Positions 525 to 47,964 of a DNA stretch of 64,000 nucleotides are shown here, piece after piece; position 1 is the first letter of the stretch, and every line of letters begins with the position of its first letter. Both the position numbers and the translations under genes were made by a program. Origin of the DNA: Bdellovibrionota bacterium (GTDB lineage Bacteria > Bdellovibrionota_C > UBA2361 > CALJRW01). The notes under the pieces are model-generated. The model worked only from the letters and a program-made list of their open reading frames with translations, was not told the DNA's origin and did not search any database. The stretch spans positions 96,001 through 160,000 of the forward strand of contig JBGSMD010000030.1 of assembly GCA_041740355.1 (NCBI GenBank), in the 5' to 3' direction.

Positions 525-2096
525 ATGAATTCTAATTTAAAAAATCGAGCCATAATCTTTTTTGCTGTTGTGATTATAGCAGCCTTGTTCCTATTCCCAA
601 CAGTAAATTCTGCCTATCGCAGTATCACTGGCCAAGGAGTTGCAGGGGAAGATAGCATTGTTAGTAAATGGTTTTCTAAGCCCATTTCTTTAGGCTTAGA
701 TCTAAGTGGTGGAGTGCATTTAGTTTATCAGGTAGTTGGCGAAGAGGCTGTTACTTCTCGTCTCCAAACTGCGGCATCATCTTTTCGCGCGGAACTTAGA
801 GCCGAGAAAATTGCTGTTACTAAAGCTCGTGTAACTCCAGGAAATTTATTAGAGATTAATTTACTCAGCTCTCGTCACTTGGAGAAAGCTAAAGAATTAA
901 TGATCTCAAGTAATCGTGGGTATGAATTTGTTTCTGATGAGCAAGTCGGGTCAGGCTCAAAGCTTGTTTATCGAATCAGTGAATTAGAGCAAGTTAAGAT
1001 TAAGGACTCGGCCGTTAATCAAGCGATTGAAACCTTACGTGCTCGGGTTGACCAATTCGGTGTTGCGGAGCCATTAATACAAAAAGTTGGAACGGATCGA
1101 ATTTTACTGCAAATGCCTGGCATTCAAGATATTGAAGCAGTGAAAAAAGTAGTTGGAAAGATTGCAAAATTAGAATTTCGCTTATTACCTGGTAGTGGTG
1201 CTACGACAGATAATGTCAGTCTAAAAGATCGGGAAGGAGCTCCAATTCAAGTTGAAGACAGTGTACAAATGTCTGGGGAGTCAATTGATAATGCCACGGT
1301 CGGTTTCGATCCAAATGGACGAGTTGAGGTAATGCTAAGTTTCAATTCTGATGGAGCTAAAAACTTTGCTAATATTACGGGGTCAAATGTTGGTCGTAAT
1401 TTAGCAATTGTGCTGGACGGAGTTGTTTATTCTTCTCCTACAATTAATGAAAGAATTGCTGGTGGACGTTGCAGTATTACTGGAGCATTTCAAATTGAAG
1501 AAGCTAAGGAATTAGCACTTGTTTTAAGAGCAGGTGCATTACCTGCACCGCTTAAAGTTTTAGAAGAAAGAACAGTTGGTCCAAGCTTGGGCGCCGATTC
1601 AATTCGTAGCGGAGTTATGGCGATCTTAATTGGATTCTTAGCAATTCTCACTTTTATGGTTATTTATTATAAGAAATCTGGATTTGTTGCTGCTATTATT
1701 TTACTAGTTAATTTGTTTTTAATCTTAGGAGCTTTGTCCGCTTTTGGTGCAACATTAACTTTGCCGGGGCTAGCAGGTTTAGCTTTAACTATTGGTATGG
1801 CTGTTGATGCTAATATTATTAGCTTTGAGCGAATTAAAGAAGAGATGCGGAATGGTTCAGATCGCGACGCTTCAGTTTCAGAGGGATTTGCTAAAGCACT
1901 CAGTGCTATTTTAGATTCTAACTTTACTACACTTCTTGCTGGTGTGATTCTTTTCTATTTTGGAACTGGACCAATTCGAGGCTTTGCTGTGACTCTATCG
2001 ATCGGGGTACTTTCAACTGTTTTTTGTGCAACTTTCGTTGCTCAATTAGCTTTTGATTATTTTTCACTGAAAAATAAAAAAGGACTGTCGATTTAA
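525..2096 (+). CDS. secD: Protein translocase subunit SecD
   Basis: LGLDLSGG, RVDQFGVAEP, LRAGALPAPL, TVGPSLG and GMAVDANIISFERIKEE motifs. Confidence 0.97.
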   Translation: MNSNLKNRAIIFFAVVIIAALFLFPTVNSAYRSITGQGVAGEDSIVSKWFSKPISLGLDLSGGVHLVYQVVGEEAVTSRLQTAASSFRAELRAEKIAVTKARVTPGNLLEINLLSSRHLEKAKELMISSNRGYEFVSDEQVGSGSKLVYRISELEQVKIKDSAVNQAIETLRARVDQFGVAEPLIQKVGTDRILLQMPGIQDIEAVKKVVGKIAKLEFRLLPGSGATTDNVSLKDREGAPIQVEDSVQMSGESIDNATVGFDPNGRVEVMLSFNSDGAKNFANITGSNVGRNLAIVLDGVVYSSPTINERIAGGRCSITGAFQIEEAKELALVLRAGALPAPLKVLEERTVGPSLGADSIRSGVMAILIGFLAILTFMVIYYKKSGFVAAIILLVNLFLILGALSAFGATLTLPGLAGLALTIGMAVDANIISFERIKEEMRNGSDRDASVSEGFAKALSAILDSNFTTLLAGVILFYFGTGPIRGFAVTLSIGVLSTVFCATFVAQLAFDYFSLKNKKGLSI

Positions 2097-2100
2097 AACC

Positions 2101-2136
2101 ACCGTCATTCATTTTTTCTTAAAAATGAATGACGGT
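2101..2136. repeat. Perfect 16-bp inverted repeat (ACCGTCATTCATTTTT / AAAAATGAATGACGGT, 4-nt loop); member of the CATTTT..AAAAT hairpin family
   Basis: Read directly; similar hairpins at 9347-9375 and 36065-36107. Confidence 0.85.
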
Positions 2137-2162
2137 TAGTATAATTTAGACAATTTAAAACT

Positions 2163-3056
2163 ATGGAACTGATTTCAACTAAAACAAATATAAATTTTCT
2201 AAGTAAAGCAAAATATGCGATTGCACTATCAACTGTGCTTATCGCTTATTCATTATTCCTTTGGTTTTCAATGGGTGATACTAAGTACGGAGTTGATTAC
2301 ACTGGAGGTAATGAATTTATTATTTCTGCGCCATCAGCTAGCACGGATCAAATTAGAACAAGTTTAAAAGCTTCTGATATTGATGGTGCTGTTGTTCAAG
2401 AATTTGAGAAAGGTAGTGGAGAATATTCCATTCGTCTTTCCGCTAATTTTCAAGATACTCAAGTTCTTCAAGATAAAATCCTTACAAGTATTAAATCAAT
2501 TGAAGCTAATACTAAAATACTTAGTTCCAACTTTGTGGGACCTACAATTGGTGAAGAGTTAAGACGAAGTGCAATGATTGCTATTATTATTGGCTTAATA
2601 GGTATGTTGGCTTACATCTCTTACCGATTTGAGTTTGCTTTTGCGCTAGGGGCTGTTGTTGCTTTGACGCATGACGTAATCATTTCTTTAGGTGTTTATT
2701 TGTTTTTTGATTTGCCACTGAGCATGGCAACACTTGCGGCGGCTATGTCGATAGTTGGTTATTCCGTAAATGATACAATTATTATTTTTGACCGCGTTCG
2801 TGAAGAAATGACGAAACGAAAGGAGTTTGTGCTTGATGAAGTAGTTAACTACAGTGTTAATGCAACTTTATCTCGTACTATCATTACAAGTTTATTAACT
2901 CTTTTCTCAGCATTAGCCCTTTATGTTTTCGGTGGCGGAGCAATTAAAGAATTAGCCTTATTTCTTGTTGCTGGTATTATTGTTGGTTCTTACTCGACAA
3001 TCTTCATCGCATCTCCCGTTGCTCTTGCTTGGGAAAAATGGCGCGCGGGAAAGTAA
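2163..3056 (+). CDS. secF: Protein translocase subunit SecF
   Basis: GVDYTGG, VGPTIGEEL, HDV, GYSVNDTIIIFDRVRE and TLSRTIITS motifs. Confidence 0.97.
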   Translation: MELISTKTNINFLSKAKYAIALSTVLIAYSLFLWFSMGDTKYGVDYTGGNEFIISAPSASTDQIRTSLKASDIDGAVVQEFEKGSGEYSIRLSANFQDTQVLQDKILTSIKSIEANTKILSSNFVGPTIGEELRRSAMIAIIIGLIGMLAYISYRFEFAFALGAVVALTHDVIISLGVYLFFDLPLSMATLAAAMSIVGYSVNDTIIIFDRVREEMTKRKEFVLDEVVNYSVNATLSRTIITSLLTLFSALALYVFGGGAIKELALFLVAGIIVGSYSTIFIASPVALAWEKWRAGK

Positions 3057-3133
3057 TCTGATTTTAGCGAAAATTATCATCATTGGCGCTATTTAGAGTT
3101 AGGCATCACCTGTACTAAAGGGGAAATTTACTA

Positions 3134-4774
3134 ATGAAACTCAAAGTAACTGTTGCACAAATCACTAGTGATCCAGCTTGCTTTGAGGAAAATTTTCATA
3201 AGATCTCTAATGCTATTACTAAGGCTAAATCTGAAAATTCACAGTTAGTAGTATTCCCTGAGCTCGCTCTCTGTGGTTATGCTCATTTAGATCTAGCTAA
3301 AAGAGATAGTTTTCTAAAATCCAATCAAGAGTATCTTCAGCGACTACTTCCTTTAACAAAAAATCTAGCAGTAATAATTGGATTTGTGGACGCAGATTTT
3401 AATACACTGCAAGCTGAAGGAAAACCAATCCTATATAATTCTGCCGCTGTAATTGAAAATGGAATTTTAAAATCAATTATTAGAAAACAGCTACTTCCAA
3501 CATATGATATCTTTTTTGAAGAAAGATATTTTCGATCTGGAGCTGCTTCCAAGGTAATTACTATTGCTGGAGTAAAAGTCGGAATCGGAATTTGTGAAGA
3601 TCTCTGGGATCAAGGTTATAATCGTCAGATATATGAAAATTTAATTGCTGATGGCGCTGAGTTATTAGTTAATATTTCGGCCTCACCTTTTGAGCCAGCT
3701 AAACTTAGCAAGCGACTCGATTTAGTTCAACAGCTAGGAGAATTACCATTTATTTACACAAACCTAACTGGTTCGTTTGATGGCTATGACGGGGAAGTTG
3801 TTTTTGATGGGCAAAGTTTTATTAGCGGTACTAAAGGAAAATTATTTTACCTAGCCCCTGCTTGCCAAGAATCAATTTCTACAGTTGATCTCTCTGTTTC
3901 TGAACAAATTACATTTAATTTAGAAAATCCCCTGAAGGAGATTACTCAGGCTTTAATTTTAGGAATCCGTGAATACTTTCGGCGTTCTGGCTTAAAACGT
4001 GCTTATATTGGCTTGAGTGGGGGAATTGATTCGGCCCTAACAGTTGCTTTAGCAGTGCAGGCCTTAGGACCCACGAATGTAATCGGTATAACGATGCCAT
4101 CAGAGGTTACCTCTAAGGAAACAAAATCTGATGCACATCTCGTAGCAAATAATTTAGGAATTAAAATAGAAGAACGTCCTATCAAAAGTATGTATCAAAA
4201 TTGGTTAACTGATTTTCGTCAGATACATGGTTTTGAGCCAGAGCGTTTAACAAAGCAAAATATTCAAGCACGTTTTCGTGGAATGATTTTGATGGAATAC
4301 ACTAATCAAGATCGTGATGGCTTAGTCCTTAGTACTGGAAACAAAACTGAGTTAGCATTAGGATATTGCACGATGTACGGTGATATGTGTGGTGGACTGG
4401 CTGTAATTGCGGATCTTAGTAAGTTAAAAGTTTATCAGCTTTCAGATTATATTAATAAATCAAGTCATAAGGAACTTATTCCGCAAACTACAATCGATCG
4501 CCTGCCAACAGCAGAGTTAGAACTAGATCAAACTGATGCTGATAACTTACCAGCTGATTATGACATTCTCTCTCCATTAGTTGATGATTTAGTAGATCAT
4601 GAATTATCATTAGATCAATTGGAGCTTAAGTATGATCCAAGAATTATTCGCGAAACAGCCAGGCTGTTAAAGATCAATGAATTTAAGCGTCGCCAAGCTG
4701 CCCCTGGAATTCGTGTAACTGGTAAGGCTTTTGGTGTAGGCCGACGAATCCCAATTAGCCATGGGTCATACTAG
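3134..4774 (+). CDS. nadE: Glutamine-dependent NAD+ synthetase
   Basis: N-terminal nitrilase-like domain (FPEL, ICED) fused to a synthetase domain (GLSGGIDSA, QNIQAR, STGNKTE, GYCTMYGD, NEFKRRQ). Confidence 0.95.
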   Translation: MKLKVTVAQITSDPACFEENFHKISNAITKAKSENSQLVVFPELALCGYAHLDLAKRDSFLKSNQEYLQRLLPLTKNLAVIIGFVDADFNTLQAEGKPILYNSAAVIENGILKSIIRKQLLPTYDIFFEERYFRSGAASKVITIAGVKVGIGICEDLWDQGYNRQIYENLIADGAELLVNISASPFEPAKLSKRLDLVQQLGELPFIYTNLTGSFDGYDGEVVFDGQSFISGTKGKLFYLAPACQESISTVDLSVSEQITFNLENPLKEITQALILGIREYFRRSGLKRAYIGLSGGIDSALTVALAVQALGPTNVIGITMPSEVTSKETKSDAHLVANNLGIKIEERPIKSMYQNWLTDFRQIHGFEPERLTKQNIQARFRGMILMEYTNQDRDGLVLSTGNKTELALGYCTMYGDMCGGLAVIADLSKLKVYQLSDYINKSSHKELIPQTTIDRLPTAELELDQTDADNLPADYDILSPLVDDLVDHELSLDQLELKYDPRIIRETARLLKINEFKRRQAAPGIRVTGKAFGVGRRIPISHGSY

Positions 4775-4964: not shown

Positions 4965-7082
4965 CTACTCATAAAATCCGATTCCTTTTTCCGCTCTCGT
5001 TAGAATCCCTGTTACCGGTCGAAAGCGGGCATCGATCTGACGCTCTAAGCTTTGCATCATATGTACTAATTTAGCAGCGCCAATACTGTTGGCATAGTAA
5101 ATTACTCCACCCCTAAATGCTGGAAAGCCTGTACCCATAACAGTTCCTAGATCGATTTGCCTGGCAGCATCACGTCCAGGAGTTCCTGCCACGCCTTCAT
5201 CTAAGCACAGCACTGCTTCATTAATTAAACTTAGAATTAAACGATCTTGAATATGCTGAGTATCGTTTGGTTTGAAGGTTTTAATTTCTAAGATGTCATA
5301 TACTTTCGGATCTAAAACTGCTTTTTTAGTTTGATAGTTATAGAAACCCAAGGAACTTTTCTTTCCAATCCGATCTGCTAACAGTAATTTTTCAACATGA
5401 TTAGGTGCCGCCATTCTTTTGCCATAACCATTAATCATCGTTTTGTAGACATGACTAGCAACGTCTAATCCTATTTGGTCAAGGAGTCTAATCGGACCCA
5501 TTGGTAACCCAAAGTTTAAAGCAGCATTATCGATATCAGGAATTGTGAAGCCATCTTGTAATAAAAATGCTGCTTCGTTTAAGTAGGCACTGAGAATTCG
5601 ATTAACTAGAAAGCCAGGAACATCTTCTACGACGATTGGAAATTTACCGATTTTCGTAGCTAGGGCGGCAATTAAACAAATAGTCTGATCACTAGTTTGA
5701 TGACCACGAATAATTTCAACTAAGGGTAACTGTGGGACTGGATTAAAGAAATGCATTCCAACAACCCGTTCTGGATTAGGGATATGATTGGCAATTTCAG
5801 TAATAGAAAGCGATGAGGTATTAGAAGCGATGATGGCATTAGGCGCAACTCGACAAGCAGCTTCCTCTAGGATTATAGATTTTAATTCTAAGTTTTCAAA
5901 AATTGCTTCGATTACAAAATTTACTTTTGCTAAGGCATCTTCCGTGTATTCTGTTATGCCCCTGACGCTTTGTAGGATATTTGCTTGATCCTGCTCAGTT
6001 AGTGATTGTCTGTAACTTAAATTCTTTTTTATTGTTTCTAGTCCGGCATTAATTGCTTCTTGTTTTGTATCTTTAAGAATTACAGGGTATTGATTGCGAG
6101 CTAATTCCCCCGCAATCCCAGCACCCATAATTCCAGAACCAATAACTAAAGTATTTAGATTCTTAATATATTCTTTGGCAGACTTTCCAATTCCTTTAGC
6201 ATTTTCAGAAAGGAAAAATAAATTTGCTAATGCCTTACATTCGGGTGTAACAATCAATTCACCTAGTCCACGTGCTTCATAAATGAACCCTTTAGTCTTG
6301 CCTTCCGCTAGTCCATATAGCACACAGTCTAAAGCTCTAAGCGGTGCAGGATAGTGTCCATTCGTTTTTTTTAGTAAATCTTTTTTAGCAATATTCGCAA
6401 CAAAGTTACGGATAAAAGGTATCTTTGTAATTAAATTATCCTTAAAGCTCATTCTTGGTTTTACAGAACTTGGATTGTTGATTAATCCTTCGGCAGCAGT
6501 AATTAAATCCTTGTACGCAACTACCGCATCTACAAGGCCTACTTTTTTCGCTTTCCAAGAACGCAGTACATTCCCAGATAGAATAATTTTTAAAGATTCC
6601 GTTAATCCAATTAATCTGGGCAGTCTTTGAGTACCACCAAATCCAGGTAGAATTCCAATCTTAACTTCCGGAAGTCCAATTGAACTTTTATCATTGTCCG
6701 AGATAACTCTAAATGAGCAGGCTAGTGCTAATTCACAAGCGCCACCAACGCAAGGACCACTAATTGCAGCTACCGTTTTAATTGGCAAATTCTCAATTAG
6801 ATTAAAAACATCTTGTCCTTTTTTCGCCAGGGCTTGACCTTCGTTTGCATCAGCAATCGCTTGAATCACGTTAATATCAGCACCAGCTGAAAACATCCCC
6901 TCAGAATTTCCAGCAATGATCAAACCTTTTGGTAGGTCCTTGGCAATTGAGATTAATGTTTCTTCTAGTTTTTCAAGTCTTTCACGGCTAAGGATAATTA
7001 CTTTTTCCTCTGGTAGCCCTAGCCGAATTAAACCAATACCGGAAGAAAGTTTTTCATATGAAATCAGATTGTAACTAGTCAT
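4965..7082 (-). CDS. fadJ: Fatty acid oxidation complex alpha subunit (enoyl-CoA hydratase / 3-hydroxyacyl-CoA dehydrogenase), FadJ/FadB type
   Basis: AGADI, GGACELALAC, GLPEVKIGILPGFGGTQRLPRL, GSGIMGAGIA, SNTSSL, GMHFFNP and PGFLVNR motifs. Confidence 0.9.
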   Translation of the reverse strand: MTSYNLISYEKLSSGIGLIRLGLPEEKVIILSRERLEKLEETLISIAKDLPKGLIIAGNSEGMFSAGADINVIQAIADANEGQALAKKGQDVFNLIENLPIKTVAAISGPCVGGACELALACSFRVISDNDKSSIGLPEVKIGILPGFGGTQRLPRLIGLTESLKIILSGNVLRSWKAKKVGLVDAVVAYKDLITAAEGLINNPSSVKPRMSFKDNLITKIPFIRNFVANIAKKDLLKKTNGHYPAPLRALDCVLYGLAEGKTKGFIYEARGLGELIVTPECKALANLFFLSENAKGIGKSAKEYIKNLNTLVIGSGIMGAGIAGELARNQYPVILKDTKQEAINAGLETIKKNLSYRQSLTEQDQANILQSVRGITEYTEDALAKVNFVIEAIFENLELKSIILEEAACRVAPNAIIASNTSSLSITEIANHIPNPERVVGMHFFNPVPQLPLVEIIRGHQTSDQTICLIAALATKIGKFPIVVEDVPGFLVNRILSAYLNEAAFLLQDGFTIPDIDNAALNFGLPMGPIRLLDQIGLDVASHVYKTMINGYGKRMAAPNHVEKLLLADRIGKKSSLGFYNYQTKKAVLDPKVYDILEIKTFKPNDTQHIQDRLILSLINEAVLCLDEGVAGTPGRDAARQIDLGTVMGTGFPAFRGGVIYYANSIGAAKLVHMMQSLERQIDARFRPVTGILTRAEKGIGFYE

Positions 7083-12622: not shown

Positions 12623-12696
12623 GTCCTCGTAGCTCAGCTGGATAGAGCACTAGTTTCCTAAACTGGGGGTCGGATGTTCGAATCATCTCGGGGACA
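12623..12696 (+). tRNA. tRNA-Arg(CCT), CCA not encoded
   Basis: Acceptor GTCCTCG/CGGGGAC, D arm AGCTCAGCTGGATAGAGC, anticodon loop TT-CCT-AA, T loop GTTCGAATC. Confidence 0.96.
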
Positions 12697-43056: not shown

Positions 43057-43275
43057 ATACTTGGATTTAATACTATAATATCAGGCTTTTACGGGCAATC
43101 AAGAATTCATAAAGTATTGTTTTATTCACACTCCGTCTTCGCTAGAAGATATAAGAGAGTAGGAAGTCATTTATGGGCTTTGGCGCGGGAAAGTCTAAGT
43201 ATTTTTTAGTTTGCTAGGCAAACATTTTTTGAAGACTTCCCTTTACTTAAAATTAAAATCTTGCTATTTTGCCAC

Positions 43276-43398
43276 CTGTATCAAGAGGGTGTGTTTCTGC
43301 ATTGCACATCCAGCAACCTTTATAATTTAAAGGTGCTCGCAGTAAGTCCTTCGTTACTAATTAAGTTTTTAGTGATTGGAGTTAGGATATTGATACGG
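43276..43398 (+). ncRNA. SAM riboswitch of the SAM-I clan, variant lacking the P2 kink-turn
   Basis: ATCAAGAG ... CAGCAACC ... GGTGC ... GAT core; P1 CTGTATCAA/TTGATACGG; P2 GGTGTG/CACATC; pseudoknot CTGC/GCAG; P4 TCCT/AGGA; upstream of a MetX-like gene. Confidence 0.8.
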
Positions 43399-43535
43399 TC
43401 ATCACGACAAAAATTAGGATCAAGCTCTCACTTCTCCTAACTAAATTCGTATACCGGTTAACAATATAAGCCTGCTTAAGACTGTTTTTCTAGTGTTTTT
43501 TTCTGTTTTCGCTCGTTTTTTAAGCAACTTCTTTC

Positions 43536-44834
43536 TTGATACATGTATTTAGTTTTTGTACGTGTATGTCTGTTGCTTCATCTTCTGCTGCTATCTTAGA
43601 GCCTACTACGGAAATTGGATCCGAACGGATCATTGATATTTCGCTTCATACAAATTCTGGACTTCGATTTGCTTCCGGCATGCAACAATCCTTTGTTGAA
43701 GATCGCTTCACCCTTCGTTCTGGACAAGTAGTTGCGGCAGAACTTAATTATCGACTCTATCACAACGAACAAGGGAATCCTTGGGAAAAAGAAATTGTTA
43801 TTGTTCATTCGGCATTAACTGGATCGGCGAAGGCATTTACAAAAGGTCCTGCAACTCAGGGTGATGGTTGGGCCAACATGATGAGCGATCTGCCAAAATT
43901 CAACTTAGATAAATACACCGTATTAGTAGCCGAACCACTAGCTGGTAATGCTCAAGGGTTAAGTAAAGAGCATTGTTGTTCGGGTCGGGATTTTCATTTT
44001 AAATACCCAGAAGTTCAAACAACTAGTTATGATGCCGTGGCACTAATCAGCAAATTATTACAGTCAAAAGGCTTGGATGAAGTTCATAATATTTCCTGTT
44101 TTTCTATGGGAGGCATTAATTTGCCAGCTTGGTTAGCTCAAGATGCGATCAAGGTACGAGAGATTGATAATCATTTTAGTAATTATCAACTTACTCCCGA
44201 AACTAGAGCATATTGGAAGATTCAACTGGATCTATTAACTGTGGGAGCAGAAGCGCCAAATTTTGCAAAAATTTCTGAGCGATTAGCCAAGAATTTTGGT
44301 TTTGAGCTAGAGAGCTTAGGAGATTTTGTGATTAATTCTCCATTTAATGCCTGTATCTATAGTTTAGCAGGTAGGGTTCAGCAGTTACAAAAAGTGTATG
44401 AAAGCTCAGATACAGCGGAATACTTAAATGAAGCCTTAAAGGTTGTTCGTGGGATTTCATTTTTAAGATTTCAGACTAGAGAGAACTATGATTGTCGTAA
44501 GACTGGAAGTTGTTTGGATTTCTTAGAGAGTCAAGGTGATAGTTTTCCAGCAAGAATGGATCCCTACAACTATGCTTCTTTGTTAAGACAGATGCTTGAT
44601 AAATCATTTGATACGCCTAAGCAATTACAAGCACTGAAGGAAGCAAAAGAAGATCGACCAGTAATTACATATATTATGTCAGGAAATGAATTATTATTTC
44701 CAAGACCATTTAATTGCCCAGAGGCAACTAGGCTGGCGGATCAAACTGTAGTCTTAAAAACTGAAGATTGGGGACATGATTTCTTTCTATCTCCACAGTA
44801 TTCTAGTACCTTGCGATCTTTTATGCGCAAATAA
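43536..44834 (+). CDS. Divergent homoserine O-acyltransferase (MetX)-like alpha/beta hydrolase; ATG 43566 is the likelier start
   Basis: FTLRSG, SALTGS, DGW, FSMGG nucleophile elbow, QGDSFPARMDP and GHDFFL motifs parallel MetX; SAM-type leader. Confidence 0.72.
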   Translation: MIHVFSFCTCMSVASSSAAILEPTTEIGSERIIDISLHTNSGLRFASGMQQSFVEDRFTLRSGQVVAAELNYRLYHNEQGNPWEKEIVIVHSALTGSAKAFTKGPATQGDGWANMMSDLPKFNLDKYTVLVAEPLAGNAQGLSKEHCCSGRDFHFKYPEVQTTSYDAVALISKLLQSKGLDEVHNISCFSMGGINLPAWLAQDAIKVREIDNHFSNYQLTPETRAYWKIQLDLLTVGAEAPNFAKISERLAKNFGFELESLGDFVINSPFNACIYSLAGRVQQLQKVYESSDTAEYLNEALKVVRGISFLRFQTRENYDCRKTGSCLDFLESQGDSFPARMDPYNYASLLRQMLDKSFDTPKQLQALKEAKEDRPVITYIMSGNELLFPRPFNCPEATRLADQTVVLKTEDWGHDFFLSPQYSSTLRSFMRK

Positions 44835-44960: not shown

Positions 44961-45635
44961 ATGTTAGAAAGAATTTATCCCCTGTTAGAAAACGCCTTAT
45001 ACATTATTCCACCCCTATTGGTTGCAATGGTGTTGCATGAAGTTGCCCATGCCTATATTGCTTATCGATTGGGTGATCCAACTGCGAAGAATTTAAATCG
45101 GCTCAATTTAAATCCAATTGTACACATTGATCCAATCTGGACATTACTCGTTCCAGGATTATTAATTTTAAGTAGTTCTCCCTTTGTCTTTGGCGCTGCT
45201 AAGCCAGTTCCTGTTGATCCGAGATATTTTAAAGATCCACGACGGGGGATGATGTGGGTAGCGATTGCTGGACCAATTATCAATTTTATTCTCGCAATAA
45301 TTTCAGCATTGTTATTTTTCTTAGCAATTTTAGTAGTTCCGGAAGATTTCTATTTAGCGAAGTTAATCTTTACTTGGTTGGTATATAGCGTCATGATTAA
45401 TTTGGTTTTGGGGTTATTTAATTTACTTCCAATTCCACCACTTGATGGTGGTAGGATTATGGTTGGGATTTTACCCCTAAAACTTGCCATTAAATATGCT
45501 CAAATTGAACGCTTTGGATTTATTCTAGTGATAGCTTTAATCTATTTTAAAGTTCCAGAAATGTTCCTTGGACCTGTTCTAGATTGGGTTCAGAAGATGC
45601 TTTTTTTGATTGCTAGTAATGGAATTCCTGCTTAA
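44961..45635 (+). CDS. Site-2 protease family (M50) membrane metalloprotease
   Basis: HEVAH, GDPTA, AGP and NLLPIPPLDG motifs. Confidence 0.94.
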   Translation: MLERIYPLLENALYIIPPLLVAMVLHEVAHAYIAYRLGDPTAKNLNRLNLNPIVHIDPIWTLLVPGLLILSSSPFVFGAAKPVPVDPRYFKDPRRGMMWVAIAGPIINFILAIISALLFFLAILVVPEDFYLAKLIFTWLVYSVMINLVLGLFNLLPIPPLDGGRIMVGILPLKLAIKYAQIERFGFILVIALIYFKVPEMFLGPVLDWVQKMLFLIASNGIPA

Positions 45636-45701
45636 TCACAGGAATCGTTTCTCTCTTTTATTAGATGAAGTAGCATTAAGTCTCAAAACCTAATCAAGTT
45701 G

Positions 45702-45735
45702 TTGATTTATAAGCGAAAATTGCTAAACTGTATCG
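45702..45735 (+). promoter_or_regulatory. Putative promoter giving a leaderless ilvB transcript
   Basis: TTGATT-N16-TAAACT with extended TG; -10 ends 6 nt before ATG; no Shine-Dalgarno. Confidence 0.5.
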
Positions 45736-47424
45736 ATGTCAAAAATTTCAGGGTCTGAAGCCCTTATTAAATCATTATTAGCGGAAGATGTTAAAACTAT
45801 TTTCGGCTACCCAGGTGGTGCAATCATGCCAATTTATGATGCCCTTTATGACTATCAAGATCAAATTAAACATATTCTAGTCCGGCACGAACAAGCTGCT
45901 GCCCATGCGGCAGAAGGGTTTGCTCGAATGACAGGAACTCCGGGAGTATGTTTTGCAACATCCGGTCCTGGGGCTACAAATTTAGTTACCGGCATTGCTG
46001 ACGCTATGATGGATTCAGTGCCAATAGTTTGTATTACTGGACAAGTTGCTAGCAGTTCACTTGGAACGGATGCTTTTCAAGAAACAGATGTAATTGGAAT
46101 TACAATCCCAATTACAAAATGGAATTATCAAGTAAGCCGTGCTGCTGAAATTCCAGAAATTATTGCGAAAGCTTTTTACATAGCTAAGAGTGGACGACCT
46201 GGACCGGTTCTTGTTGATATCACTAAAGATGCTCAGTTTGAATTGATTGAGAATTTCTCTTATCAGCGAATGGAAAAGCATCCAACTTATTTTTTACCTC
46301 CTGCTCCAAAAGAGTCATTGCTAGCAGAAGCTGCCAAGCTAATTAATAGTGCTGAGCGACCACTGATTTTAGCAGGGCACGGAATCTTAATTTCTAAAGC
46401 AGAGAAAGCTTTAGTTGAATTTGCTGAGAAATCGGGCATTCCTGTTGCTTGTACATTACATGGACTGTCTTCATTTCCTACTGGTCATGCCAATTACGTT
46501 GGCATGCTTGGAATGCATGGAAATTACGGACCAAATTATCTGTGCAACGAAGCCGATGTAGTAATTGCCGTGGGAATGCGCTTTGACGATCGTGTTACAG
46601 GCAAAGTTGATTCTTACTTACCTAACTCTAAAATCATTCATATCGAGATTGATGTCGCCGAGATTGATAAAGTTAAAAGAGCAGAAATTGCGATTTGTGC
46701 TGATGCTAAAGTTGCCTTGGTTGGATTAACAAAGGTAGTCAACCAAAAAACTTATTCCACATGGATGCAGAAATTTAAAGCTTGTTATGAGGAAGAATAT
46801 AAAGAAGTAATTGGTGAAGCCGTCAATTATAAAGGGGACAAGCCTCGAATGGTTCAAACAATTCATATGCTGTCTGAGAAAACTGAAGGCAAGGCGGTAA
46901 TTGTAGGGGATGTTGGACAACATCAAATGATGGCCGCAAGATACTACCAGTATCAATTACCAGATAGTTGGATTACATCCGGTGGTCTTGGAACAATGGG
47001 CTTTGCTTTGCCAGCTGCGATGGGGGCAAAAGTTGCAACCGATCGAGAGGTCATTGCAATAATTGGTGACGGTTGCTTTCAAATGACAATTCAGGAATTA
47101 GCTACTTTAGCCCAAGATGATATTGCTGTGAAAGTAATAGTTCTTAATAATAATTTCCTAGGTATGGTTCGACAGTGGCAGGAATTATTTTTTCAGAAGC
47201 GATATTCTTTTGTAGAATTAAAAAATCCAAATTTTGTGATGGTTGCTGAAGGGATGGGAGTTACCGCTAGTAAAGTGACTGATAGCTCCCAATTGTCTGA
47301 AGCGCTAGATGTAATGCTTGCTCACAAAGGTCCGTACGTTCTAGAAGTTGTTGTAGAACGTGAAGATAATGTTTTTCCAATGGTGCCGGCTGGACAGGGA
47401 GTTCGGGATATTCGTTTAAAATAA
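45736..47424 (+). CDS. ilvB: Acetolactate synthase large subunit
   Basis: FGYPGGA, RHEQ, TSGPGATN, GMLGMHG, GMRFDDR, GDG..NN ThDP motif and GMVRQWQ. Confidence 0.97.
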   Translation: MSKISGSEALIKSLLAEDVKTIFGYPGGAIMPIYDALYDYQDQIKHILVRHEQAAAHAAEGFARMTGTPGVCFATSGPGATNLVTGIADAMMDSVPIVCITGQVASSSLGTDAFQETDVIGITIPITKWNYQVSRAAEIPEIIAKAFYIAKSGRPGPVLVDITKDAQFELIENFSYQRMEKHPTYFLPPAPKESLLAEAAKLINSAERPLILAGHGILISKAEKALVEFAEKSGIPVACTLHGLSSFPTGHANYVGMLGMHGNYGPNYLCNEADVVIAVGMRFDDRVTGKVDSYLPNSKIIHIEIDVAEIDKVKRAEIAICADAKVALVGLTKVVNQKTYSTWMQKFKACYEEEYKEVIGEAVNYKGDKPRMVQTIHMLSEKTEGKAVIVGDVGQHQMMAARYYQYQLPDSWITSGGLGTMGFALPAAMGAKVATDREVIAIIGDGCFQMTIQELATLAQDDIAVKVIVLNNNFLGMVRQWQELFFQKRYSFVELKNPNFVMVAEGMGVTASKVTDSSQLSEALDVMLAHKGPYVLEVVVEREDNVFPMVPAGQGVRDIRLK

Positions 47425-47436
47425 AAATATATTCTT

Positions 47437-47964
47437 ATGATGGAAAATACCAAAGACAGATTATTTACAATTTCTGCCTATACTGAAAATAGTCCTGGGG
47501 TACTGCAAAGAATTGCTACTTCTTTTACAAAAAGAAAAATTAACATTGAAACACTAACAGTCTCCGAAACATCGCAGCCAGGATTGTCTTTGTTCACAAT
47601 CACGGCTTATATCGATCCTAAAATTGTTCCAACAATTGTTAAGCAAATTGAAAGAATTATTGAAGTTCGCAAAGCATTTGCCTGTGATGACGAAAATCTA
47701 ATTTTTGTGGAAGTTGCTTTAATACGGGTCAATCGCAAGGAGCAGTCGGATTTGACTAAAGTTGAAGCTATTGCCAAAGCGCACGAAGCCCAGGTAGTTT
47801 ATAGTGATGAAGAAACAATAGTCGTCGAAACTTATGGGAAAGAGGCAGACACAAAAGCGATTTATAATGAACTTAAAGCCTTTGAGGTTTTACAGTTTGT
47901 AAGAAGTGGAAGAATTGCCCTTCGAAAAAAATATCAAAGCATTTACGTTAACGATAACGAATAA
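47437..47964 (+). CDS. ilvN: Acetolactate synthase small (regulatory) subunit
   Basis: ACT domain ENSPGVLQRI..F.KRKINI and VRSGRIAL; directly after ilvB. Confidence 0.92.
   Translation: MMENTKDRLFTISAYTENSPGVLQRIATSFTKRKINIETLTVSETSQPGLSLFTITAYIDPKIVPTIVKQIERIIEVRKAFACDDENLIFVEVALIRVNRKEQSDLTKVEAIAKAHEAQVVYSDEETIVVETYGKEADTKAIYNELKAFEVLQFVRSGRIALRKKYQSIYVNDNE

Follow-up and report, generated by a model that had tools for sequence, protein, structure and literature searches.

A probable divergent SAM-I/IV riboswitch with a long P4 hairpin in the leader of a MetX-like gene from an uncultured Bdellovibrionota lineage

The window analysed here is a stretch of 64,000 nucleotides (nt) from the genome of a Bdellovibrionota bacterium (assembly GCA_041740355.1, contig JBGSMD010000030.1, positions 96,001 to 160,000 of the forward strand), and our subject is the leader of a gene within it that encodes a divergent MetX-like alpha/beta-hydrolase. 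From upstream to downstream, this leader carries a putative promoter, an RNA element that resembles the aptamer of an S-adenosylmethionine (SAM) riboswitch, a conserved block, a variable U-rich spacer and a hairpin that covers the start codon (Table 1). An earlier reading of the same letters, referred to below as the original prediction, had proposed a SAM-clan riboswitch of a new architecture at this site, with a P4 hairpin and a pseudoknot between a loop and a joiner, but without a kink-turn, in control of a methionine-pathway gene. According to our analysis, the element at 43273-43424 is very probably a divergent, AT-rich member of the known SAM-I/IV riboswitch family. This family assignment and a mechanism that acts on translation, taken jointly, appear to us a fairly probable reading of the locus.

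Table 1. Features of the leader and of the gene that follows it, with positions in the window
Feature	Position	Strand	Basis or remark
Putative promoter, TTGAAG (43229-34) and TAAAAT (43254-59), 19-nt spacer	43229-43259	+	reading of the sequence; block kept in the second species
Aptamer (RF01725 positions 1-99)	43273-43424	+	covariance-model match
P1, 5' strand, GUAUC	43278-43282	+	model match and minimum free energy (MFE) fold
J1/2, AAGA	43283-43286	+	directly after the 5' strand of P1
P2, 7-bp stem (43287-93 with 43305-11), loop L2 of 11 nt (43294-43304)	43287-43311	+	model match and fold
P3 with SAM-clan internal loop (GCAACC ... GGUGC), loop L3 UAAUU (43323-27)	43312-43337	+	model match and fold; invariant in four lineages
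J3/4 joiner, CGCAG, 5 nt	43338-43342	+	holds GCAG (43339-42)
P4, long irregular hairpin within the junction, 42 nt	43343-43384	+	MFE and suboptimal folds
J4/1, GGAUAUU, 7 nt	43385-43391	+	contains GAUAU (43386-90), a second possible 3' strand of P1
P1, 3' strand, GAUAC	43392-43396	+	model match and fold
3' hairpin (P5 in SAM-IV naming), 3-bp stem GUC/GAC, 5-nt loop	43398-43408	+	aligned to the SAM-I/IV 3' hairpin, model positions 70-90; folded
A-rich linker, then AAUUA (43412-16)	43409-43416	+	CAAAAA stretch matches the family consensus
Conserved block, possible alternative partners for P1 3' strand and P5	43414-43468	+	kept in the second species; role inferred
Variable U-rich spacer (pyrimidine tract of the original prediction)	43469-43534	+	unalignable and partly absent in the second species
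Anti-P1 word CUUGAUAC, exact complement of GUAUCAAG (43278-85; P1 5' strand and J1/2)	43535-43542	+	exact in both species
Start-codon hairpin, 10 bp (43539-48 with 43558-67), covers A and U of AUG	43539-43567	+	folds in both species
Divergent MetX-like alpha/beta-hydrolase gene	43566-44834	+	ATG 43566 likely start; the list of open reading frames gives TTG 43536

In a local, permissive scan of positions 43150-43600, the sole SAM-clan match was to the SAM-I/IV model of Rfam, RF01725 (35.1 bits, E 4.7e-4), and this match is not truncated. All unpaired upper-case positions of the RF01725 consensus are matched by the element, and the alignment places an insertion of approximately 52 nt between P3 and the 3' strand of P1. 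The SAM-I model (RF00162) had zero matches at the locus at E ≤ 1, and the SAM-IV model (RF00634) had zero matches in the genome at E ≤ 10. Folding of 43276-43424 without constraints recovers P1, P2, P3 and P4 in the MFE structure. The core of the SAM clan, with AUC and GAU in P1, AAGAG in J1/2 and GCAACC opposite GGUGC, is complete and aligned to the consensus, and it is invariant in a second species of the genus (G001) as well as in two metagenome contigs (X4 and X6). Each of the motifs that the original prediction had named lies where it had been placed (ATC-AAGAG at 43280-43287, GCAACC at 43313-18, GGTGC at 43332-36 and the closing GAT at 43392-94); together with the full-length model match, they support its claim of a SAM-clan riboswitch. 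Judged by this core, SAM is the predicted ligand. Model match, fold and conservation, when all motifs are considered together, exceed chance. The spelling of the core (GUAUC-AAGAG, CAGCAACC, GGUGCU, GAUACGG) is nearer to SAM-I/IV RNAs of other phyla (L025, L028, L036). At Rfam gathering thresholds, no SAM family was listed for the 64-kb window and only a tRNA was found (12623-12696), which is the window's only match at this level.

The letters 5' of P1 (43271-76) vary in the second species and in the X6 contig, and P1 therefore extends no further. P2 is continuous, without an internal loop, and since neither of its strands has a GA or AG dinucleotide, there is no kink-turn. It is thus the plain helix that had been described, with seven unbroken pairs, no bulge and no G-A pairs.

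The long P4 that had been claimed is likewise present. Its lower part consists of two short stems (43343-45 with 43382-84, and 43347-49 with 43378-80), above which 43353-60 pairs with 43369-76 in the apical stem. Because GGA is present twice, two registers of the lower part are possible: in the MFE register, the seven nucleotides GGAUAUU are left unpaired before P1, and an alternative register (43344-50 with 43384-91), which is flush with P1, is costlier by approximately 5 kcal/mol. The border between P4 and P1 is rich in repeats, with UUAGGAU occurring twice (43382-43388 and 43414-43420) and a tandem GAUAU-U-GAUAC at 43386-43396, which gives alternative registers for P4, for P1 and for the partner of a UCCUAA sequence downstream. 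Over the second species and the two contigs, P4 shows one two-sided and five one-sided changes that keep the pairs, and one change that breaks a pair.

To place this hairpin among its relatives, 17 other SAM-I/IV RNAs were parsed. P4 is present in 15 of them, where it always abuts P1 directly and begins 1-3 nt downstream of P3, and four further P4-bearing examples were recognised by eye. Six relatives from the same order show covariation in P4, with four pairs altered on both sides, and the printed RF01725 alignments of genomes from the phylum contain hairpin inserts at the P4 site. The entire stretch from P3 to P1 measures 14-30 nt in the relatives, as compared to 42 nt for P4 alone in the window. 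When RF01725 was searched across 124 genomes of the phylum at E ≤ 1, 15 genomes were matched, six of them above the cut-off; two of the weak matches are actually SAM-I, and several clear P4-bearing SAM-I/IV riboswitches of the phylum (among L012-L019) score 35-39 bits, under the gathering score of 41.1 bits. We ascribe the sub-threshold scores of several relatives and of the window RNA to the fact that the Rfam model has no P4; in the window, the unusual length of P4 and the 5-nt joiner between P3 and P4 add to this.

Beyond P1, where the parse of the original prediction ended, lie the 3' hairpin, an A-rich linker and a tail with complementarity to the loop of P3; it overlooked these parts, which are a hallmark of SAM-I/IV and SAM-IV. 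In this tail, AAUUA could form five Watson-Crick A-U pairs with the UAAUU of L3, which would constitute the pseudoknot PK-2, and we infer from this complementarity that the window element may have a PK-2. The loop-versus-tail test used for this pseudoknot is crude and detects PK-2 poorly even in the relatives, such that it is not a family-wide test.

The second species, whose protein from the orthologous gene is 58% identical to that of the window's own genome (G000; 3.27 Mb, 97% complete), carries the same RNA, which RF01725 matches at 34.1 bits. The aptamers of the two species align with 96% mean column identity, and the spacer cannot be aligned. Five changes fall inside helices: three one-sided changes and one two-sided change keep their pairs, and one breaks a pair. 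P2 has a single change from U-A to U-G that keeps the pair, and the apical stem of P4 has one A-U that became G-C, two one-sided changes that keep pairs, and the broken pair, which is at the tip. Of the two metagenome contigs, X4 covers 43253-43458 and has A43356G; X6 covers 43203-43422 and has T43355C, A43356G and A43360G, and a further seven changes 5' of 43277. The three P4 changes in X4 and X6 all keep the pairs, though these are single contigs of low depth in which errors are possible. A sequencing run (X2) covers the coding part of the gene only.

A covariance model built from the RNAs of the two species (R1) finds the RNA in two of 91 genomes of the order, both from the window's own genus, with one copy per genome. 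It also matches Rfam-validated SAM-I/IV RNAs elsewhere, with E-values from 3e-7 to 7e-3; these loci had been pre-picked by a core pattern from the window, and the core part of the match is therefore circular. Three weak R1 matches (L050-L052, 15-18 bits) were rejected, as the core letters are missing. Pattern scans of genome contigs (6 loci) and metagenome contigs (19 loci) gave no further RNA of the subtype, and the loci found are other SAM-I/IV RNAs, or chance or coding matches. One metagenome locus (L042, ~6683-6800) matches the core pattern without an obvious P2 hairpin, is unmatched by R1 and may be due to chance; a word of 6-7 nt in its P2 region could pair with a segment downstream of P3. 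For a second model (R2), six SAM-I/IV RNAs with a P4 were taken from the same order; it matches 13 other SAM-I/IV loci. The RNAs from which R2 derives spell the core differently (AGGAA, CCAACC, GGUGG), and because of this difference R2 gave no independent confirmation.

As for the controlled gene, the second species keeps ATG TCT, which makes ATG 43566 the likely start. The product of 432 amino acids contains a GxSxG-like FSMGG motif. NCBIfam MetX models match its N-terminal half only, at an E-value of 1e-13, and the match falls far short of their cut-offs. Pfam gave no family for the product at E ≤ 0.001 and nothing meaningful at E ≤ 1, and a phmmer search of the PDB with it had zero matches. 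In the 97% complete genome, this gene is the only one matched by the MetX models, no match to MetA/HTS was obtained, and one strong Cys/Met pyridoxal phosphate enzyme is encoded elsewhere. In another genome of the order (G012), a homologue with 34% identity over 272 residues carries a fused Cys_Met_Meta_PP domain and lies downstream of a classical SAM-I riboswitch (84.4 bits, positions 1023-1155 of locus L003). The open frame at this locus (1315-3759, more than 815 amino acids) contains a MetX-like and a Cys_Met_Meta_PP part and runs off the locus; to judge by its sequence, it is apparently a fusion of two consecutive steps of the methionine pathway. This genomic context, i.e., the only MetX match in the genome and the fused homologue linked to SAM-I, makes a methionine-pathway role of the MetX-like gene well supported, as had been predicted for the gene downstream of the RNA. 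A small open reading frame that overlaps the aptamer (43261-43440) was rejected as a coding gene. Downstream of the metX-like gene, 44961-47964 contains a short Peptidase_M50-like open reading frame, followed by the large and small subunits of acetolactate synthase (ilvB/ilvN-like).

At the upstream end of the leader, the putative promoter is not called by a consensus scan because of its spacing. Just before it lies a hairpin with a T run that resembles a terminator (43209-43223), and the second species has a different hairpin and T run in the same place. Between the aptamer and the start codon, the leader measures approximately 140 nt. Its conserved block holds a UUAGGA/UCCUAA hairpin (43414-19 with 43435-40), UCGUAUACCG at 43447-56 and CAAUAU at 43462-67, and CAATAT is also found in the loose end of contig X4. 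The original prediction had seen an alternative fold here, in which a downstream word pairs with the 3' part of P4. The eight-nucleotide complement does exist, formed by TCCTAACT (43435-42) and its reverse complement AGTTAGGA (43380-87), but in the second species one of the eight pairs is lost, leaving six plus one. It also has a competitor, since UUAGGA at 43414-19 is a partner for UCCUAA no worse than 43380-87, and only the former pairing is perfect in the second species. The pyrimidine-rich tract that had been noted is present as well, in the form of a T-rich stretch at ~43480-43535, but it is not conserved, being largely missing from the second species. The terminator that this tract had implied is not supported, because no terminator-like site was found between 43424 and 43566.

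The anti-P1 word directly after the spacer offers a different partner for P1. Among 11 relatives from the phylum, the corresponding 8-mer is exact in four, has one mismatch near the aptamer end in four, and is absent or displaced in three. The word covaries with J1/2 (CUUG for AAG, CCUG for AGG, CGUG for ACG), and the phylum relatives have it directly before the Shine-Dalgarno sequence and AUG. None of ten SAM-I/IV RNAs from other phyla has the device. In the window, the word overlaps the 5' arm of the start-codon hairpin, in which the second species has one U-G changed to G-U and one U-G changed to U-A. Constrained folds were calculated for both species. When the aptamer is imposed, the probabilities that the A and the U of AUG are unpaired are 0.03 and 0.11 in the window's genome and 0.10 and 0.16 in the second species; with the anti-P1 helix enforced, these values are 0.67 and 0.89, and 0.85 and 0.39, respectively. 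Enforcing the anti-P1 helix in either species also makes the 3' strand of P1 and P5 pair with the block at 43447-67, which would explain why this block is conserved. For the window's genome, the aptamer state has an ensemble energy of -71.9 kcal/mol and the anti-P1 state one of -79.7 kcal/mol, before any energy of ligand or tertiary contacts.

These complementarities and constrained folds suggest the following switching scheme. Without SAM, the 5' strand of P1 and J1/2 (43278-85) would pair with 43535-42, and the 3' strand of P1 and the P5 region would pair with 43447-67, such that the AUG at 43566 would be open. With SAM, the aptamer would keep both strands of P1 and thereby free 43539-48, which could then close the 10-bp hairpin over the AUG and turn translation off.

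Several results weigh against a SAM-I/IV riboswitch that acts in this manner. The score of 35.1 bits is below the gathering score of RF01725, so that the covariance models return a full-length match to SAM-I/IV and none to SAM-I or SAM-IV, but at a sub-threshold level. The E-value of the local scan becomes approximately 3 by our own scaling to the 3.27-Mb genome, and whole-genome searches with RF01725 left the element unreported; on score alone, genome-wide significance is not reached. R2 misses the window and the second species, and the window is missed even with the filters off. J4/1 has 7 nt, versus 0 nt in the relatives parsed, and P5 is weak, with only 3 bp that are invariant. As for PK-2, shuffles of the tail reach five pairs in 8.3% of cases, and all five pairs are invariant. 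With respect to the mechanism, the anti-P1 state lies approximately 8 kcal/mol below the aptamer state for the window's genome in the nearest-neighbour model, the anti-P1 helix would span approximately 250 nt, and neither candidate start of the metX-like gene is preceded by a recognisable Shine-Dalgarno sequence. The sub-threshold score, the weak P5 and the missing match of the order-derived model could also speak for a decayed or chance SAM-like sequence without regulatory function. Against this, the aptamer is near-identical in two species with diverged flanks and protein, and in two contigs besides; the observed changes preserve the structure, the core positions are all intact, and the only MetX-like gene of the genome has the RNA in its 5' leader. 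We therefore consider decay or chance highly improbable and conclude that the window RNA is very probably a real riboswitch under selection. It is a separate matter at which level this riboswitch acts. Control might be mainly transcriptional, if transcripts were terminated within the long U-rich leader, be it by Rho or intrinsically, with UCCUAACU/AGUUAGGA serving as an anti-aptamer element; the length and pyrimidine content of the leader, the complement of 43435-42 to 43380-87 and the conservation of the block at 43420-68 would fit such a role. However, 43424-43566 has no hairpin with a T run that would resemble a terminator, most of the U-rich tract is missing from the second species, where it is the UUAGGA/UCCUAA hairpin that stays intact and the eight-nucleotide complement that does not, and the phylum relatives put their anti-P1 word right before the Shine-Dalgarno sequence and AUG. 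This makes transcriptional control quite unlikely in our view, and we lean, by a modest degree, towards control that is mainly translational, with the start codon hidden.

The remaining alternative concerns the aptamer itself. It holds that the window element is a new SAM-clan architecture, in which P2 is straight and CUGC from its large loop L2 pairs with GCAG to form a PK-1 without a kink, combined with P4 and PK-2 in one aptamer. The loop-joiner pseudoknot of the original prediction does have its complement, as CUGC in L2 (43297-43300) and GCAG in J3/4 can form four Watson-Crick pairs. Moreover, the joiner that contains GCAG has 5 nt as compared to 1-3 nt in 15 of 15 P4-bearing relatives, and both L2 and J3/4 are invariant in four lineages in which the 5' flank and the tip of P4 change. 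This invariance is unspecific to L2, however, since nearly the entire aptamer is invariant, and the four pairs never vary between the two near-identical sequences, such that a covariation signal is impossible. At least four pairs arise by chance with a probability of 0.067 when L2 is shuffled and of 0.078 for random 11-nt versus 6-nt sequences, and the CTGC/GCAG pairing by itself is thus not beyond chance. In none of the 17 other SAM-I/IV RNAs does L2 form as many as three pairs with J3/4, though several of them have loops of 7-8 nt. Geometry is a further concern: GCAG lies 1 nt past P3 and next to the base of a straight helix of 7 bp, and linkers of 3-4 nt would have to fold back approximately 20 Angstrom by our own estimate. 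In SAM-I, according to one study, the kink brings the loop of P2 to its receptor, and breaking the kink abolishes SAM binding (PMC4316175). A kink-less PK-1 was not described in the literature that we searched, where "SAM-I/IV" was unusable as a search term and which did not extend to the supplements of Weinberg 2010. On balance, a new architecture seems unlikely to us. PK-1 is the only part of the window element that would be new, and as far as the sequence goes, a new riboswitch architecture is not established, since the claim rests solely on a 4-bp complement. If it were true, the kink-turn would be dispensable for PK-1, and the window element would stand between SAM-I and SAM-I/IV as a natural intermediate form.

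Taken as a divergent SAM-I/IV riboswitch, the window element is an example of a functional-looking SAM riboswitch that is missed by a curated Rfam threshold. It suggests that AT-rich SAM-I/IV members bearing P4 are under-called in annotation, because RF01725 does not include P4, which 15 of the 17 relatives parsed possess. The riboswitch also marks a very divergent alpha/beta-hydrolase as a probable homoserine O-acyltransferase of an uncultured lineage. Finally, the leader in the window is predicted to be a long, translational expression platform that uses two helices.

It had been claimed that the features of the window element fit none of the known SAM riboswitches cleanly. For the SAM-I/IV RNA env87, a crystal structure has reportedly been solved by Trausch et al. 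in 2014 (PDB 4L81). Zhang et al. 2019 describe SAM-I/IV, as compared to SAM-IV, as having an unsplit P2, lacking PK-1 and possessing P4, with PK-2 common to both (PMC6890682). The env87 sequence, as given in RNA-Puzzles III, has a short hairpin between the 3' strand of P3 and the 3' strand of P1, and P1 is followed by another hairpin and by a tail with complementarity to the P3 loop (PMC5393176). Given that an unsplit P2, P4 and PK-2 occur together in the solved SAM-I/IV RNA, and that P4 is found in 15 of 17 relatives, the combination in the window is the known SAM-I/IV one, and the claim of a new architecture is not supported on this point.

With SAM-IV (RF00634), the window element shares the core, the hairpin after P1 and the putative PK-2, and it would share PK-1 if the CUGC/GCAG pairing were real; however, SAM-IV has no P4, and its P2 is split into P2a and P2b by a 4-nt turn (PMC6890682), whereas the window RNA has a P4 and an unbroken P2. 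SAM-I (S box, RF00162) resembles the window element in its ligand-binding core, the P1 letters UAUC/GAUA, a P4 within the junction and a J3/4 of several nucleotides that could pair with L2, and in G012 it controls a homologue of the MetX-like gene. Unlike SAM-I, the window P2 has no kink-turn, and the 3' hairpin and putative PK-2 tail of the window RNA are lacking in SAM-I. As compared to its SAM-I/IV relatives, the window RNA stands out by the 42 nt of its P4, by a J3/4 of 5 nt (1-3 nt in the relatives) and a J4/1 of 7 nt (0 nt in the relatives), by an L2 of 11 nt with a 4-bp complement to J3/4, by a P5 of just 3 bp and by approximately 110 extra nucleotides between the aptamer and the switching word. 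What it has in common with SAM-I/IV (RF01725, env87) is the SAM-clan core, the unsplit P2 and the P4 hairpin within the junction, and these are followed, as in that family, by a hairpin 3' of P1, an A-rich linker and the P3-loop-complementary tail of the putative PK-2. With the SAM-I/IV relatives of its own phylum, it further shares the anti-P1 expression platform.

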